From assembly GCA_963782715.1 (NCBI GenBank), contig CAWAKU010000022.1, positions 22,439 through 86,438 of the forward strand: 64,000 nucleotides of DNA, read 5' to 3'. Position 1 is the stretch's first letter. Every line of letters begins with the position of its first letter. Both the position numbers and the translations under genes were made by a program. Source of the stretch: an uncultured Chloroflexia bacterium (GTDB lineage Bacteria > Chloroflexota > Limnocylindria > Limnocylindrales > CSP1-4). A model generated the notes under the pieces. That model was not told the origin of the DNA, did not search any database, and was given only the letters and a program-made list of their open reading frames with translations. Below are positions 37,745 to 45,275 of the stretch, one piece after another.

Positions 37745-37967
37745 CGACCCGCGCTCGCAGCTAATCGGGAGGTGAGTGGCTCGCGCCATGATGGCGCGCA
37801 TGCCAGCACACGAAACCTCCGTTGACACCTCCCGGAGCGAGTCCGTATCGTTCGCGCCGCCTCACCCGATGTGGCCCGCGCCACGGACCGACCGATGGGC
37901 ACCGGTCGCCGTCGGCCCAGGGCGCCCAACCGTCGGGTCGGCAAGCCATGGAGCGCTCGGCGACGGT

Positions 37968-40900
37968 ATGACCGGGTACCCGATCCAGCCCGCGAAGGTC
38001 CAGGGTCCGCTCCTGCGCGACGAGACCCTGGCCCGGCACCGGCTCCTCGACTGGCTTGCGGCCAAGATCCACCATCGGGTCATCCTCGTCCTGGCGGACG
38101 CGGGCTACGGCAAGACGACGCTCCTGGCCGACTTCTCGCGGCGCACCCGAGTCCGCACGGTCTGGTATCGCCTCGATGACGACGACCGCGACTGGATCTC
38201 GTTCCTGAGCCACCTCGTCGCCGCGGGCCGGGTGCACGATCCCGCGTTCGCCCCGAACACGGCCGCGCTGCTCAGCGACCTCGCCATGGGCGGTCCGACC
38301 CGCGAGGCGGCGACGGAGGTGTTCCTCCGCGAGCTGCCCGCGATCGCCGAGCGTGGGGCGATGCTCATCCTTGACGACTTCCACCTCGTCGACGAATCGC
38401 CGGATGTCCGTGCCATCGTCCGGGAACTCGTCGCGGCCGCACCTGAGCGCCTGTCGATCGTGTTCGCGAGCCGACGCAGTCCGTCCATTCCCCTGGCGCG
38501 CCTGCGCTCGGCCGGCGAGGTCGCCGAACTCGGGACCGACGACCTGCGCTTTGACGCGGCCGAGACGGCGAGCCTGTTCGCCGAGACCTACGGCCGCGCG
38601 CTCGAACCCGACGTCCTCGCCGATGTCGCAGCCAAGACCGAGGGATGGGCCGCATCGCTCCAACTCGTCCAGGCTGCCCTGCGCGACCGAACCCCCGCCC
38701 AGATCCGTCAGTTCGTCCGGGGCCTCAGCGGGGCCGACCAGGAGCTCTATGACTACCTCGCGGAAGAGGTCGTCGGTGACCTCCCGGAGGAACTGCAGCA
38801 GTTCCTGATGCGGACATCGATCCTGCAGGTGGTGACCGCGGACCTCGCGCAGGTCGTGACGGACCTCGACCGCGCCGGCGTCGCCGCGATGACCAGCGCA
38901 GCCGAACGGCTGACGCTGCTCGGTCGTCCGTCGCGGTCCGGCAAGGGGTCGCAGCGCTACCACCCCCTGGTGCGCCAGTTCCTCGAAGCACGTCTCCTGA
39001 CCGCGACCGGCGCAGACCGGGTGGCTGAACTCCATCGCCGAGCCGCCGTCGCAGCGGCTGTCGATTGGCGAATGGCCGCCTACCACTACCGGCAGGCGGG
39101 CGACGCAGCATCCGTGGCGTCGACGATCGCCACGGCCATCCCAGAGATCATGGGCGGCGGCCAACACGCCGCAGCGATCGAAGAGATCGACCGGCTTCCG
39201 GTCGGCGTGCGGCTGCCTGTCCTGGACCTCGTTGTTTCACGAGTCAAGTTCCAACGGCGCGACTATTCGTCCGCAATTGGACTCTCGCGCGCAGTTCTTG
39301 AGACCGTTGAGCCCGGTACTCAGGAAAGTGATTTCGCGCTCCTCAACTTGATCACGCTCTACATCGAATCTGGCAAATCGGTCGAAGCTGTCGAGATGAC
39401 CCGCCGACTCGACTTGACAACGTCCGATGACCAGCTTCGCCAGATTGCCATCGCGGCCGCATTGATGATTGAGGCAACCGGCTCCGGCAGCCTCGATGAA
39501 GTGGTTCGCCATCTAGCGTCTATGGCGGAGCGTCAACGAGGGATTCACTCTCACTACTACGGCGTAACAATGCTCAATCTGGCCCTCATTGCCGTCCATC
39601 AGGACCGGCCTGATATCGGTGTTGAGCACGCCCGTGAGGCTATTCAGTCACTGGAGGGCACGTCATCGCGGATCGAGCTTTCGGCGGCCTTCATGGCACT
39701 CGCCCACCCTTTAGCCCTTCTTGGAAAGGCATCTGAAGCTCAACAGGCCATCGATCGTGCCGTAAGCCTGGACGAGGCGGAGGCGCTCAGTGAAGAGGGC
39801 GACCTCGCAGATTCCTACCTCGATCCAGGTTCGGCATGGCCAATCATCGCCTCGCTCGACGACAGCTTGGAATCCGCGGCGAAGGAGAGATACGCGATCC
39901 AGTCAGCCGTCTTCCACGCGCGACGAGCTCAATTTGACGAGGCACAGGAACTCCTGCCGAGGTCACCGGCGCGCGAAGGCGTCCTCATGGGGACGGCGAC
40001 CATCATGCGGGTGGCAATCGCATACGTCGCCGTCGCTTCGGGCTCGGCCAGGGGAGCCGAACATGCTCGCGAGGCTAGGCGAGCCGCAAGAGCCCAGGGG
40101 GCGATCCGTTGGCGACGAACCGCGGAACTGCTCGAGGCGTGTGCCGAATCTCCCCAAGCCCTTGGCAAGTTGATCCCCGCGGTCGCGCGCACGTCGCCCT
40201 GGAACTTGACATACATCTCAGATCTCATTGCCGCGCGGCTAGATGACCTGGACGAATCGACATTTCCCCTGCTCACGCGGGTCGCGAATATGCATCCGGG
40301 CCGTTGGCGGTTCGCTCTTAGGGACTGTGTTTCCAATGCGCGCCCCGGGGAAGGCCTGGTGGCGGCTCGCCTTCTCGAGGACATCGGCGAGACATCCGAT
40401 ATCGGCAGGCTCCGTGCATACGCCCGCGGCCAGAAGCGTCTGCCCGGCGCCTCGAGACTTGGTCGGTCGCTGGCTCGCCGGTTGGCGGACAGAGCCACCA
40501 TTGAAGACCAGGGCCGAGTCATGGTTGTCGTGGGGGATCGGCAGGTTCCTGGGTCGACGATTCGTCGAAAGGTCCTTGCCCTAATGTGCTTTCTTCTCAC
40601 GCGACCAGCAATGGCTAGCACGCGCGACCAGGTCCTCGACGCTTTGTGGCCAGAACTTGATCCGCTGGACGCTTTGAACTCGCTCAACCAGACCGTCTAC
40701 TTCCTCAGGCGAGTCCTCGAGGAACCCTACGTGGACGACTTGTCGCCGGGCTATGTCCACCACGATTCCGACCTAATCTGGCTAGACGAAGACCTGGTTA
40801 CGAGTCGAAGCAATGAATGCCGGCTCCTCATCAAGGGCCTCCCGATCAATCCACGTCCGGACGACGTCGACGCCTTGGTCGATCGATACCAAGGACGCTT

Positions 40901-41203
40901 CGCTCTCGATTTCGAATACGAGGAATGGGCTGCGCCGTATCGCGATTGGCTCCATGCGTCTTATCTCGAGGTGGTCGAACGAGCGGTGACGACGATCTCG
41001 AGACCGGACACTTCGAACGTGGGATCCGATTGGCGAGGCGGGTCCTGGATGTCGACCCAGGAGCGGAGCATGTCGAGGTCTCACTCCTGCGGCTTTACCG
41101 CGCGAGCGGGGCACATGCAGCGGCCGCCGAGCAATACGCACACTACGCGAGCGCCATGCGCGAGCAGCTCGGGGTCGAACCCCCTCCACTCGAGAGCCTG
41201 TAG
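37968..41203 (+). CDS. MalT-like STAND ATPase with a TPR-like region and C-terminal wHTH/BTAD (SARP) domains; apparent frameshift near 40995
   Basis: Walker A ADAGYGKTT, Walker B LILDDFH, TEGWAASL, YDYLAEEV, RYHPL; RDQVLDALWP...LNQTVYFLRR; BTAD end in ORF 40817..41203. Confidence 0.88.
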
Positions 41204-41222
41204 GGATAGGTAAGGTGCCGTA

Positions 41223-41252
41223 TTGACCGGTTTAGTCCGGCCTCCCTATAGT
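41223..41252 (+). promoter_or_regulatory. Sigma70-like promoter
   Basis: TTGACC, 18 nt spacer, TATAGT, directly upstream of the riboswitch-like leader. Confidence 0.6.
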
Positions 41253-41280
41253 CCCGGAACTTCGTAGTACCCCAGTACTA

Positions 41281-41368
41281 GGAAGCAACGTTAAGACGCT
41301 CGGACGCGCAGAAGCTCCACCTGAAATGGGCACTTAGGGTGGAGCCGAGCGACTAGTGCAACCGACCG
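41281..41368 (+). ncRNA. c-di-GMP-II-like riboswitch aptamer
   Basis: Stem GCTCCACC/GGTGGAGC closes a loop containing TGGGCACTT; pseudoknot partner AGTGC is followed by AACCGACC. These are the class-II conserved blocks. An HD-GYP gene lies downstream. Confidence 0.7.
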
Positions 41369-41390
41369 ACTAACTAGTCTGGTCGGTTTT
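41360..41390 (+). terminator. Intrinsic terminator overlapping the aptamer 3' end
   Basis: AACCGACC-GACT-AACT-AGTC-T-GGTCGGTT followed by TT. Confidence 0.7.
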
Positions 41391-41429
41391 CGTGTTTGAG
41401 ACACGGGAGCCGCGAAATGGAGGACGAGC

Positions 41430-41557
41430 GTGAAGCCTGAAGCACGATCACAAGGGCTGGTAGGCCATGAAAGGCCGATCATGCGCATCCTGGTCACGAT
41501 CAGTCGAGTGTGGCGATGCTTGTGCTGGCCGGTGGAGCTTCGCTTCGGGGTTTCTAG
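41430..41557 (+). CDS. Putative signalling micropeptide precursor (...MRILVTIS/SSVAMLVLAGGASLRGF*); requires correcting one indel near 41503
   Basis: GGAGGA RBS then GTG 41430, with in-frame ATG 41481. The -1 frame from 41504 reads SSVAMLVLAGGASLRGF-TAG. The start is uncertain. Confidence 0.55.
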
Positions 41558-41631
41558 TACGTTGGGCATCTCTCGTTCGGACGAGCCAGCAGGTAGAGTC
41601 TGCGCGAGGGTGGTTCGACGAACGGCCGCTC

Positions 41632-43100
41632 ATGTCAGGTCGCTCAAGGCATACCTATTGGAGTCGTGATTTTCAGTGCTAGTCGCCCTGGTGGCTGCGA
41701 CTCTTCTGGTTTCCCGCCGACTTATCCCGCGATAGCCATCACTCTGGCCACCGGGACTAGCGATCGACAGCGATGTCGCGATCGCTGGCCGGCGTCGGGT
41801 TCTGGATCGTCCTCACTCTGATCTGTTGGGCTCTTCCCGTTCGATCTCCCACGGGGGACTCAGCAGGCTGTGGCCAATGCGCCGATGCTCGCGGCGATCT
41901 TTCTAGGTGGCCCAGCGGTAGGTGGATGGGTTGCAGCTCTGGGAACCACCGAGACCCGCGAGCTCCGGGGCCGAATTCCCTGGTACGGAACACTGGCGAA
42001 CCACGCAGGGATTGCGTTGCCGGCCATTGCATCCGGCTGGTTTACGAATTCCTCCCCGGAAAGGGCGCCGGGCCGTTCGCGGATTTCATCAGGGCGATGC
42101 TCGCGGCCGGGGTGTTCTACGGCCTCAACGTTTGGTTCGCGGTCTCACTACTCGCCCTCCGCACTAGGCAGCCGATCCGCACGGTGCTACTGACGGAGTC
42201 GAGGGAGAACGTTCTTCAAGAATCTCGCGCTCGGTCCCCTTGGTTGGCTTATGGCCCTCGTGTACACGCGTCCTTTGGTGGGCGACGCTGCTGTTCGCAC
42301 TTCCGCTGTACACAACCGGACTGCTTCGCAGCGACTGATCGAGATGCGCGACATGTTCACCCAAACGATTGGTGCCCTTGCAGAAGCAGTCGACAAGCGC
42401 GATCCATATACCGCTCGACATAGCCAGAACGTGAAGATTGATCGCAGTCGATATCGGTCGAGTAATGCGCGTCAGCGATCGCGAGCTGGAGGCGCTGGAG
42501 TGGGGTGGGCTGCTCCACGACGTCGGCAAGATTGGCGTGCCAGACAACGTGCTACTCAAGTCGGATCGACTGAACCGCGAGGAGCGGATGATCATGAACT
42601 CGCATCCGGTCCTGGGTGCCCAAATCATCGCGCCGGTGACTAGATTGGCAGCGGAACTGCCGATCATCCGTCACCACCACGAGTGGTACAACGGGTCGGG
42701 ATATCCGGATCGACTCATCGGCGACGAGATACCGAAGCTTGCGAGAATCCTCCATGTCGCAGACGCATTCGAGGCAATGACCGCGGCCCGCCCGTACCGC
42801 ATGACTCCACTCACGGCCGAGCAGGCATTGGCCGAGCTGCGCAAGTTCGCAGGTGTCCAGTTCGATCCGGTCGTCGTCGATGCTTTCGTCAGGACAACGC
42901 ACGTCGAGGGTGTGGCGGATGCTGGCCGATCTGCAGGGCCACGTCAGATTCCGCTAATCGCACAGGCCGCCGATCGAATGACGACCGCGCCTCACTCGGA
43001 GGCTAAGGCGACGCCGTGCTTCAGCCGAACGCGTCTGACGGACTCTGCGTCGCCCGGCTGCACATTGCGTCGCTCGGACGACACCATGATGCAGCGGTGA
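41632..43100 (+). CDS. HD-GYP phosphodiesterase with an N-terminal multi-TM sensor; several frameshifts
   Basis: DPYTARHS, LLHDVGKIG, HHEWYNGSGYP, VADAFEAMT.RPYR, QFDP; hydrophobic fragments in ORFs 41773 and 41870. Confidence 0.85.
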
Positions 43101-43120
43101 ACAGCGCTCTACCCGCCCCC

Positions 43121-45191
43121 GTGTTGATCGGCGGCGTCGCCCTCGGACTCATCCTGGGCCTGCTCGTCGGCGGCTCGATCTCCAACCTGGCGTCGGTGCG
43201 CCTCCATCGCATCGGGATCCTCGTCGGCGCCGTGCTGCTCCGGTTCGGGACGGAGATCCTCCTCAATCAGGGCGTCCCGATCGCGGACACCCTGCGGGTT
43301 CCCCTCCTCGCCGCCGCCTACGGCCTTCTGCTCGTCGCGCTGTGGGCGAACCGCGGCTATCCGGGCATGAGCCTCGCGTTCATCGGTGTGCTCGCGAACG
43401 GTGTCGTCATCCTCGTCAACGGCGGGTACATGCCGATCTACCTGCCGAGCCTCGAGCTCGCCGGCCTGACCCCCGCAGACGTGACCTCGAACCTCCACGT
43501 GATCCTGGGACCGGCCCTGGACGCCAACTTCCTTCTTCACCTCGGCCCATTCGCCGACGTCATCCCCATCCCCTTCCCGCTCGTGCAGAACGTGGCCTCG
43601 ATCGGCGATGCGTTCCTGACCTTCGGTCTCGCCTTCTTCCTGTTCGCGGCCGTCGTCCGTGTCCCGCAGGAACTGGACGAGGAGCAGCTCGCGGTGATCC
43701 GCCAGCGGCTGGCCATCCTGTCCGCTTCGGGCCGTCCATTGCGCGCCGGCGACCCGGGCGCCGACACCGGGCTGTCGTCCGCCCTGACCCGCACCGTGGC
43801 CCTTGAGCGGCCCCTCGTCATGGGCAGCGCCGGTCCCGGGCTGGCATCCCCGTCCCTCAGCAGCTTCGAGGCGGACCCGGCGATCCCGGGCACGATCACG
43901 GTCTCGATCCCACGTCCAGTCGAGACGATCGAGCGGGTTCGTCACCACCCATACGTCCGGCTCGCGCTCAACGGCTCCTTCTCGGCCCTGTGGGCCGGCC
44001 AGCTCATCTCATTGTTCGGTGACCGACTCAACCAGCTCGCCCTGGTCGCCGTTGTGGCGATCTCGACCGGTTCGGCGCTGGCGACAGGGCTCGTGTTCTT
44101 CGCCGCCACGCTCCCGAACCTGCTGCTGAGCCCGATCGCGGGAACGTTCGTGGATCGCTGGGACCGTAAAGAGGTCATGGTCGTCAGTGACGTCCTGCGA
44201 GCCGCGCTGGTCCTGCTGTTGCCAGTCGCCGCGGTCACCAACATCATCCTGGTCTATCCGCTGATCTTCCTCGTGACGACGATCTCGGTGTTCTTCCGGC
44301 CGGCACGCGTGGCGATCCTTCCGCGGATCGTCCCGGAAGAGGACCTGCTCAGCGCCAACTCGGCCTTGTGGGTCGGCGAGACGATCGCGGATGTCATCGG
44401 TTATCCCCTTGCCGGCGTCTTCGTCGCGGTCCTCGGGAGCGCCGTGCCGCTCGCATTCTGGGTCGACAGCGCGACGTACCTCGCGTCGGCGGCGCTGATC
44501 GGGACGATCGTCGTCAGTTCAGTGGCAACGCGGCCAGGCGAAACGGGCGACGGCAGATCCATCGACGTCGACCGGCGACCCTCCATCCGGACCGAAATGG
44601 CGATCGGCTGGCAGTTCCTCCGCCATGAGACCGTTCTCCTTGCGAATACGCTGCAGGGCGCGGTCGGACAGTTCGCCCTTGGGATTGCCATCGCTCTCAC
44701 ACCGAGCTTCGCTCAGATGACATTCAGCCAGTCCGGTCTTGGGTGGCAGGCCGCGTACGGCTTTCTTGAGACTGCTCTTGGACTCGGCAACCTCATCGGC
44801 GGATTCACGATTGGTCTCATTGGAGACGCGGTTTGCGAAGGGTCGGATGGTCATCGCAGGCTACGCTCTGTGGGGTCTCCTGATCTTCTTGTTCGCTTTG
44901 TCGGGCAACTTGGCCGTCGCTATTGGACTGTCATTCGGACAGGGTGTTGCCGGCATGATCTTCATCATCCCGAGCCAAACGCTCTTCCAGGAACGAACGC
45001 CATCGGAGCTGATGGGAAGGGTCGTTGGCATCCGGTTCGCATTGGTCTTCGGGTCGATGACGATCGCGATGCTCCTCGGGTCCGTGCTGGGGCAGCTCGT
45101 CGGGCCGGCTCCGGTCATGGCTGTCTTCGGGCTGGTGACCGTCGGAGCCGGCCTGGCCGGGCTTCTCGTGCCGGCCGTCCGCGACGCGTGA
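43121..45191 (+). CDS. DUF5317-MFS (DHA3/EntS-like) fusion; apparent frameshift near 44830
   Basis: N-terminal NGVVILVNGGYMP...FADVIP...SIGD is in frame with LWAGQLISLFGD...GTFVDRWDRK. Confidence 0.85.
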
Positions 45192-45275
45192 CGGACGAGG
45201 GCTCGGCACCTTCGGTACACTGGCGCCCGCGCCGCGCCCGATGATCGAGGCGGCCGCCAGGAGTGACACGACCCG

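Follow-up and report, generated by a model that had tools for sequence, protein, structure and literature searches.

A conserved 29-residue micropeptide gene in a predicted riboswitch-gated c-di-GMP operon of Limnocylindria

Some bacterial membrane proteins are bound by a very small partner: MgrB and SafA for PhoQ, AcrZ for AcrB and KdpF for KdpABC are about 30 amino acids (aa) long, cross the membrane once, and are encoded beside, or co-regulated with, the membrane protein to which they bind; we know of none of these four that lies behind a riboswitch or targets an enzyme of cyclic di-GMP (c-di-GMP) metabolism. Under c-di-GMP control, the CD1980.2 family of C. difficile comprises 58-aa membrane-associated proteins encoded behind class I c-di-GMP riboswitches, which promote sporulation according to the accessible part of that study (PMC13724677). 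As for the enzymes, the available portion of a study on MASE9-HD-GYP proteins (T. maritima TM1467 and S. venezuelae HdgA) argues that MASE9 binds a ligand within the membrane (bioRxiv 10.1101/2021.11.05.467447). Here we describe a micropeptide gene found in a 64,000-nucleotide (nt) stretch of contig CAWAKU010000022.1, from an uncultured Chloroflexia bacterium of the Limnocylindria (the whole stretch is called the window hereafter). The gene stands between a class II c-di-GMP (c-di-GMP-II) riboswitch and the genes for a membrane-sensor HD-GYP c-di-GMP phosphodiesterase and for a fusion of DUF5317 with a major facilitator superfamily (MFS) protein. By the family libraries and the literature searched, it represents a new, nameless family of micropeptides, within a riboswitch-gated c-di-GMP module not described before; the literature search found nothing on an arrangement of c-di-GMP-II riboswitch, micro-ORF (ORF, open reading frame) and HD-GYP gene, on riboswitches in Limnocylindria, or on DUF5317.

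The micropeptide gene spans 41467..41557 on the forward (+) strand, on which the other parts of the operon and the regulator gene upstream also lie, running from ATG 41467 to a TAG stop (41555-41557) over 91 nt in the window versus 90 nt in relatives. A previous inspection of the letters alone (the sequence-only reading) had proposed a micropeptide here, missed by the ORF track, from GGAGGA at 41419-41424, a frame opened by GTG 41430 that reads ...HERPIMRILVTISRVWRC, and a frame from 41504 that reads SSVAMLVLAGGASLRGF up to the TAG; all of these are present, and no ORF of at least 20 aa in the window ORF list terminates at 41557. It had joined the frames across an indel, and the join was borne out by 28 of 36 loci of the same genus, which carry one unbroken 29-codon ORF of the same pattern. 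The window copy does need joining, but with two frame corrections and not one: its pieces MKGR (from 41467), MRILVTIS (41481) and SSVAMLVLAGGASLRGF-TAG (41504) lie in three frames because, compared with a 27-sequence DNA alignment, one base is lost after ~41478 and two are in surplus at ~41502-41503. Three starts had been left open (41430, 41467 or 41481); ATG 41467 is the one retained, as its MKGR... fits the MK[AG][KR] of relatives, whereas 41430 begins a separate upstream ORF (uORF) and 41481 is internal.

Within the genus, 23 of 24 other genomes have a match to 41200-43100 at 70-83% identity, and a 386-nt stretch (41255-41640) matches 97 of 130 other genus genomes, in most of which the similarity stops no more than about 10 nt past the micropeptide stop. 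DNA similarity gave the 36 distinct loci mentioned above; their 28 intact ORFs include MKARVLRIAVTLSSVAMIALAGGASLRGF, MKAKISRAMIALASVAMIAVAGGASLRGF and MRARFTGIILTLSSVLMIAIAGGAAIKGW, and the micropeptide of the closest relative (L022) is MKGRISRALVILSSVAMIAIAGGASLRGI. The frame is thus conserved in relatives, the lack of which would have told against the sequence-only reading. Among 75 unique intact genes, the proportions of synonymous (pS) and nonsynonymous (pN) differences over codons 14-29 were 0.65 and 0.074 (ratio 0.11), and codons 21-26 (A-G-G-A-S-L) showed zero entropy at positions 1 and 2 with 1.3-1.9 bits at position 3, although 48 of the 75 were found by scanning with the motif AGGASLRGF and are invariant there by construction. 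The fair test of coding is the subset of 27 genes found by DNA similarity alone, which gave a pN/pS of 0.14 over the same codons; as control frames, +1 was open in 0/27, and +2 was open in 21/27 with a ratio of 2.98. This substitution pattern identifies 41467-41557 as a genuine protein-coding gene under protein-level purifying selection. A database search retrieved 114 proteins at E ≤ 0.01, most of exactly 29 aa and, where named, called 'hypothetical protein'; gene callers therefore already call this gene in other genomes. No Pfam domain was present in any of the 114 matches, no family for the micropeptide was found in Pfam or NCBIfam, and the ESM Atlas held unnamed clusters only.

Judging from the surrounding sequence, the window copy most likely owes its breaks to errors of assembly. 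About 15 frame breaks cluster at ~40990-42440, from the end of an upstream regulator gene across uORF and micropeptide to the first half of the HD-GYP gene, with clean flanks; 11 of them fall in 41655-42437, three in 41440-41505 and none in 42440-43031. If they were real, this genome would carry both micro-ORFs and the N-terminal half of the HD-GYP gene as pseudogenes, and the clustering itself is in line with such decay, as are the single break in the 3.4-kb upstream gene and the 95% completeness of the genome, better than that of the error-ridden relatives. We nevertheless hold true decay to be quite improbable. A frameshift-aware alignment of the HD-GYP protein with the 462-aa orthologue of L022 gave 351/458 identical residues (77%), and after frame correction its pN/pS was 0.33 across the broken stretch and 0.10 across the HD part; assembly error is favored because some 15 indels in 1.5 kb come without matching substitution decay, an implausible course for a dying gene, while the HD-GYP gene still evolves as coding. 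Moreover, the riboswitch is intact, and breaks of the same type occur only in relatives of few contigs and low completeness (all eight broken copies are from assemblies of at most 40 contigs, 60-82% complete). The uORF copy has one surplus base at 41444 that was absent from 3/3 covering metagenome contigs, from three studies; the metagenome contigs, taken from four runs, give patchy cover, and 41444 is the only micro-ORF break they reach. The region ~40990-42440 looks like a locally badly polished stretch of a long-read assembly. Genes this small vanish in indel-bearing long-read assemblies, and joining frames across one base can recover them.

By its layout, the micropeptide gene is the second cistron of a predicted operon in the order promoter, riboswitch with terminator, uORF, micropeptide, HD-GYP and DUF5317-MFS, and the linkage to the last two extends well beyond the genus. 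The membrane domain of the HD-GYP protein was found in 85/91 genomes of the window's own family (f1), 60/92 of family f3, 68/103 of f4, 1/2 of f5 and 0/12 of f2, whose genomes are small (these tallies include eight unpublished genomes). A micropeptide of like build immediately precedes the HD-GYP orthologue in 25 of 30 f1 loci (7/10 in the own genus and 18/20 in other genera, for instance MKDRLIRLFTAAGAVVAMAIAGGASLKGF) and in 20/20 loci of f3, f4 and f5, with examples such as ...LAIAGGASLKGW in f4, MRRIISALVALAALVLGGGAGVTGY and ...GGGAGINGL in f3, and ...VISGGAGFGGF in f5. Across the class, conservation is limited to a basic start, a hydrophobic run of 13-17 residues, and [AG]-G-A-[SG]-x-x-G-[FWYL]-stop. 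The riboswitch reached the gathering score in 17/20 f1 loci of other genera and was present in 12/12 f4 loci at E ≤ 1.3e-6 (six of them at gathering score); it was found in 0/8 of the f3/f5 loci examined, where the micropeptide has its own strong GGAGG-type ribosome-binding site. A gene with DUF5317-type motifs, with or without MFS, follows the HD-GYP gene in 8/8 f3/f5 loci, and Pfam confirmed DUF5317 in the three that were run. Because micropeptide, HD-GYP and DUF5317 persist without both riboswitch and uORF, we regard this trio as the stable core and the riboswitch with the uORF as a front end of f1 and f4. As judged by these sequence comparisons, the trio recurs in four Limnocylindria families, with or without the riboswitch.

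DUF5317 itself was found in 89 of 301 Chloroflexota genomes (one unpublished genome included). In 13 of 30 DUF5317 loci from other families a basic-hydrophobic micropeptide adjoins the gene on the same strand, e.g. MRAQVLRLGWALLALAGLLLASGAPVSWPV, and nine of the 13 read G-A-P. A strict pattern occurred in 8/30 of these loci (100.7 kb) versus 0.08 expected, about 100-fold, the background rate being taken from three matches in the 3.76-Mb own genome. These look-alikes match the Limnocylindria micropeptide in build and context, and may or may not be homologous to it.

The build that the sequence-only reading had described (basic start, hydrophobic helix, small-residue G-G-A site and 5-residue tail) was seen in full in the alignments of relatives, in which the G-G-A is invariant. 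The predicted 29-residue product would have a basic cytoplasmic N-terminus (MK.R..R), one hydrophobic span, an invariant G-G-A-S and, on the outside, four final residues that end in G-F. The features of a signal peptide are also recognizable by eye in these alignments (MK.R..R, 13-17 hydrophobic residues, invariant G at -3 and A at -1), with S or G at +1 in the Limnocylindria micropeptides and only five residues past the putative site. The tail SLRGF is invariant in 75/75 intact genus-level genes, to which the reservation on motif-found copies applies, and near-invariant in other genera of the family.

Phr and SHP/XIP precursors of Firmicutes likewise have a basic start and a hydrophobic stretch followed by 5-9 active C-terminal residues, lie beside cytoplasmic RRNPP/Rgg receptors and diverge between strains. 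A pheromone precursor that releases about SLRGF or ASLRGF was indeed what the sequence-only reading had proposed. In an extended form of this idea, signal peptidase or the DUF5317 protein would cleave behind G-G-A and free the tail (SLRGF), which the fused MFS might export and which the HD-GYP membrane domain or the ATPase regulator encoded upstream would sense. The n-region, the h-region and the small residues at -3/-1 fit such a precursor; moreover, tail and G-G-A are the best conserved parts across four families, an efflux-type MFS fused to a membrane protein with two invariant Asp residues is encoded nearby, and the large ATPase/DNA-binding regulator is retained upstream in f1 and f4. We consider this unlikely, nonetheless. 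The tail is near-invariant across more than 20 genera, whereas known peptide pheromones tend to diverge between strains, and it has just 4-5 residues past the putative site. Nine of the 13 DUF5317-linked look-alikes, which may not be homologous, read G-A-P, and signal peptidase I is blocked by a Pro at +1. Loci of f3 lack the upstream regulator, in which Pfam found no tetratricopeptide repeat (TPR) family at E ≤ 0.01, so that the locus does not have the make-up of an RRNPP/Phr-type cassette; instead, and unlike in Phr, SHP or XIP loci, genes for two membrane proteins accompany the micropeptide gene in all lineages examined.

Upstream of the micropeptide, the regulatory picture of the sequence-only reading was incomplete, as it missed the c-di-GMP-II riboswitch together with the HD-GYP/DUF5317-MFS operon. 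A promoter-like site, TTGACC-18-TATAGT at 41223..41252, has 10 of 12 consensus matches and both hexamers conserved in the 27-sequence alignment; it would serve as the promoter of the operon. It is followed at 41260..41285 by a 5' hairpin or palindrome, CTTCG-TAGTAC-CCCA-GTACTA-GGAAG (-12.4 kcal/mol, z -4.5), whose arms are invariant or near-invariant and whose loop is variable; it may act in the RNA, as a hairpin or switch, or in the DNA, as an operator. The riboswitch aptamer (RF01786) lies at 41293..41376 with 67 bits versus a gathering score of 53.5 (E 8e-13, model positions 1-84). An intrinsic-terminator hairpin with a U-rich tail occupies 41360..41398, with a 12-bp stem at 41360-41388 (-16.8 kcal/mol, z -3.75) followed by UUUUCGUGUUUG, and the stem is retained in 27/27 sequences. 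Its 5' arm, AACCGACCGACU, belongs to the aptamer consensus and overlaps the 3' part of the aptamer. As this arm lies within the aptamer, the ligand-bound form should block termination, and we infer an ON switch. Two further RF01786-like elements in the genome stayed below gathering, with 41.4 and 29.5 bits (C8:252718-252804 and C9:125307-125394); they precede proteins with twin-arginine-type signal peptides and have no micropeptide. A Whalefall-1 RNA match at 41809-41861 (E 0.055) was taken as chance.

The GGAGGA that the sequence-only reading had assigned to the micropeptide as its ribosome-binding site turned out to serve the separate, conserved uORF of 9-10 codons that starts at GTG 41430. 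This Shine-Dalgarno sequence (41419..41424) belongs to a conserved AAGGAGGA placed 5-6 nt 5' of an invariant GTG/ATG. The uORF covers 41430..41463 (TAG at 41461-41463), although in the window its frame runs on through the surplus base, and in relatives it reads M-x-P-E-x(1-3)-K-G-W-stop. It was found in 78 of 88 unique relatives' loci, with examples such as VAPESAKGW, VNPETQNKGW and MKPESDHKGW; 65 of these 78 have P as residue 3 and 75 have E or D as residue 4, with K-[GAPS]-[WYF] as the tail; they stop at TAG (68) or TAA (10), never at TGA. Selection on the uORF peptide is suggested by changes that preserve an aromatic residue (TGG to TAC or TTC); Gly is encoded by GGC in 51 and by GGT in six, never by GGA or GGG, which leaves room for a constraint at the RNA level. 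Between the end of the uORF and the first codon of the micropeptide lie 4-29 nt. The uORF occurs in 12/12 f4 loci (M-A-R-x-x-x-K-G-W) and 0/8 f3/f5 loci, hence it tracks the riboswitch and not the micropeptide. Of note, its K-G-W tail echoes the R-G-F of the micropeptide (K-G-W in f4 micropeptides), and it is duplicated in tandem and in frame in three relatives (L007/L125, L072 and L085), e.g. VTAESAKGWTPVSAKGW. Just before the f4 uORF start there is a conserved hairpin, CAGAAG-AGGGCAC-CUUCUG, ending at the AUG, which may contribute to the expression platform at the level of translation.

The position of the micropeptide gene between riboswitch and enzyme gene also suits a leader acting in cis, whose translation itself (by coupling, Rho protection or a stall at G-F-UAG) would determine how strongly the HD-GYP gene, 75-100 nt downstream, is expressed, leaving the peptide without a role. 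The stop codon is TAG in 75/75 genus-level genes, the uORF upstream ends similarly (K-G-W-TAG/TAA), and base pairing of the TAGTAC at the micropeptide stop with an arm of the 5' hairpin is conceivable: the stop is embedded in an invariant CTAGTAC (41554-41560), and RNAalifold predicts a long-range pairing of GUACUAG of the 5' hairpin with this CUAGUAC in 27/27 sequences, with no covariation. However, TAGTAC past the stop was found in 0/12 f4 loci, several f3 and f4 genes stop at TAA, and where riboswitch and uORF are absent the gene is still there, preceded by a strong ribosome-binding site of its own. In addition, hydrophobicity and the basic N-terminus are kept while the residues change, which is the mark of a membrane segment and not of a tunnel-arrest motif. 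We therefore see little chance that the gene is such a leader.

The phosphodiesterase gene (41632..43100) carries 11 of the frame breaks, at 41655-42437. The HD_5 family was matched by the intact orthologue in L006 at 1.1e-37 (129.9 bits, Pfam), and HHEWYNGSGYP is readable in the window ORF 42438-43100. The N-terminal multi-pass membrane domain has ~245 residues; in the orthologue MASE9 (PF20972) stays below the cut-off, with 16.1 bits versus 24.3 (E 0.011). The AlphaFold model of this domain has a predicted local distance difference test (pLDDT) score of 79 and no fold match at E 1e-3, the best being S-components of energy-coupling factor (ECF) transporters at E 3e-3. These sub-threshold matches are to the vitamin-binding RibU, FolT, BioY and ThiT, with a TM-score of at most 0.61 on the target. 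The likeness of the model to S-components hints at a ligand pocket inside the membrane.

The DUF5317-MFS fusion gene (43016..45244), broken in frame at its tail, was assigned by Pfam to DUF5317 (PF17248; 1.6e-22, 80.6 bits versus a cut-off of 25), MFS_1 (6.8e-20) and MFS_3 (1.1e-15), and its MFS part is DHA3-like (TIGR00900). Invariant residues of DUF5317 are N76, N92, G-G-x-M-P, D136 and S151-x-G153-D154. Its model is confident (pLDDT 91), but no Foldseek match was obtained (best E 0.78) and a wide fold search returned only generic helix bundles (best Z 6.4); the idea of a GxGD-type intramembrane protease, suggested by D136 and S-x-G-D154, has no support from these fold searches of the model. 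Two further, stand-alone DUF5317 genes lie on contig C16 of the genome.

Upstream of the operon, 37776..41203 encodes a large ATPase/winged-helix regulator with a BTAD-type C-terminus (AAA_22, AAA_16, Trans_reg_C); its reading frame is broken once, close to the end. Loci of f4 retain upstream a gene whose C-terminus is of similar type, unlike those of f3, where a PII-like protein sits instead, which we take to be similar to c-di-AMP receptors. The regulator may or may not be part of the module.

Taken together, we give about an even chance to the reading in which the micropeptide is an uncleaved, single-pass accessory or regulatory subunit of an HD-GYP/DUF5317 membrane sensing unit, within a c-di-GMP feedback operon; the proposed partnership is based on gene linkage. 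High c-di-GMP would keep the aptamer closed, no terminator would form, and the operon would be read through; its phosphodiesterase would then lower c-di-GMP, making a negative feedback loop. Ribosomes ending the uORF 4-29 nt upstream would go on to initiate at the micropeptide gene, which lacks a good ribosome-binding site itself. The peptide would insert with its N-terminus inside and its C-terminus outside, stay uncleaved and act, presumably by binding, on the HD-GYP sensor domain, the DUF5317 protein, or both.

Several observations weigh against this subunit reading. There are only 13-17 hydrophobic residues from the last basic residue to G-G-A, which is short for a membrane span and resembles the core of a signal peptide; G at -3 and A at -1 would suit a signal-peptidase site, so that cleavage is possible; and the tail is better conserved than the helix, as a released peptide would also be, with the motif-found genes noted above contributing invariance by construction. 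The breaks in the window could also be genuine; the sequencing runs listed for this locus have shares of at most 0.08, with no near-identical reads and no RNA run among them. A further reading, rather unlikely in our view, makes the micropeptide a precursor or ligand of a new membrane peptide-signalling layer on c-di-GMP control, in which DUF5317 would process or present it, the MFS would move it, its G-aromatic tail or its helix would be the input of this class of membrane HD-GYP sensors, and the K-G-W peptide of the uORF would join the same chemistry.

The inputs of membrane-anchored c-di-GMP enzymes are largely unknown, and a micropeptide linked class-wide to HD-GYP and DUF5317 is a testable candidate for an input or a subunit; DUF5317, in turn, gains its first functional context. 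The subunit reading is modeled on the way MgrB-type regulators work: these share size and single span with the micropeptide and have no sequence relation to it, and what is known here of the partnership is linkage. Compared with RF01786 operons, the full-length aptamer and the terminator are alike, but here the first cistrons are two micro-ORFs and the phosphodiesterase comes third.

Like the MASE9-HD-GYP proteins as presented in the available portion of that study, the enzyme of this locus has its HD-GYP domain behind an N-terminal integral-membrane sensor, and a ligand held in the membrane would suit an embedded peptide partner; unlike them, the window domain scores below the MASE9 cut-off, and that portion makes no mention of a micropeptide, DUF5317 or a riboswitch (bioRxiv 10.1101/2021.11.05.467447). 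With CD1980.2, as far as the accessible part of the report describes it, the locus shares a small membrane-associated protein, missed by annotation, directly behind a c-di-GMP riboswitch acting by premature termination (PMC13724677). CD1980.2 is described there as a predicted four-helix protein with a C-terminal hydrophobic helix, repressed by c-di-GMP, stand-alone and multicopy, with no homologues reported outside C. difficile (PMC13724677). In contrast, the micropeptide here has 29 aa and a single predicted span, lies behind a class II riboswitch with a probable ON logic, and is single-copy in an HD-GYP/DUF5317-MFS operon, a distinction drawn from description and not from sequence. It would thus be a second independent case, after CD1980.2, of a small membrane protein as the first output of a c-di-GMP riboswitch, here apparently wired as feedback on c-di-GMP breakdown.

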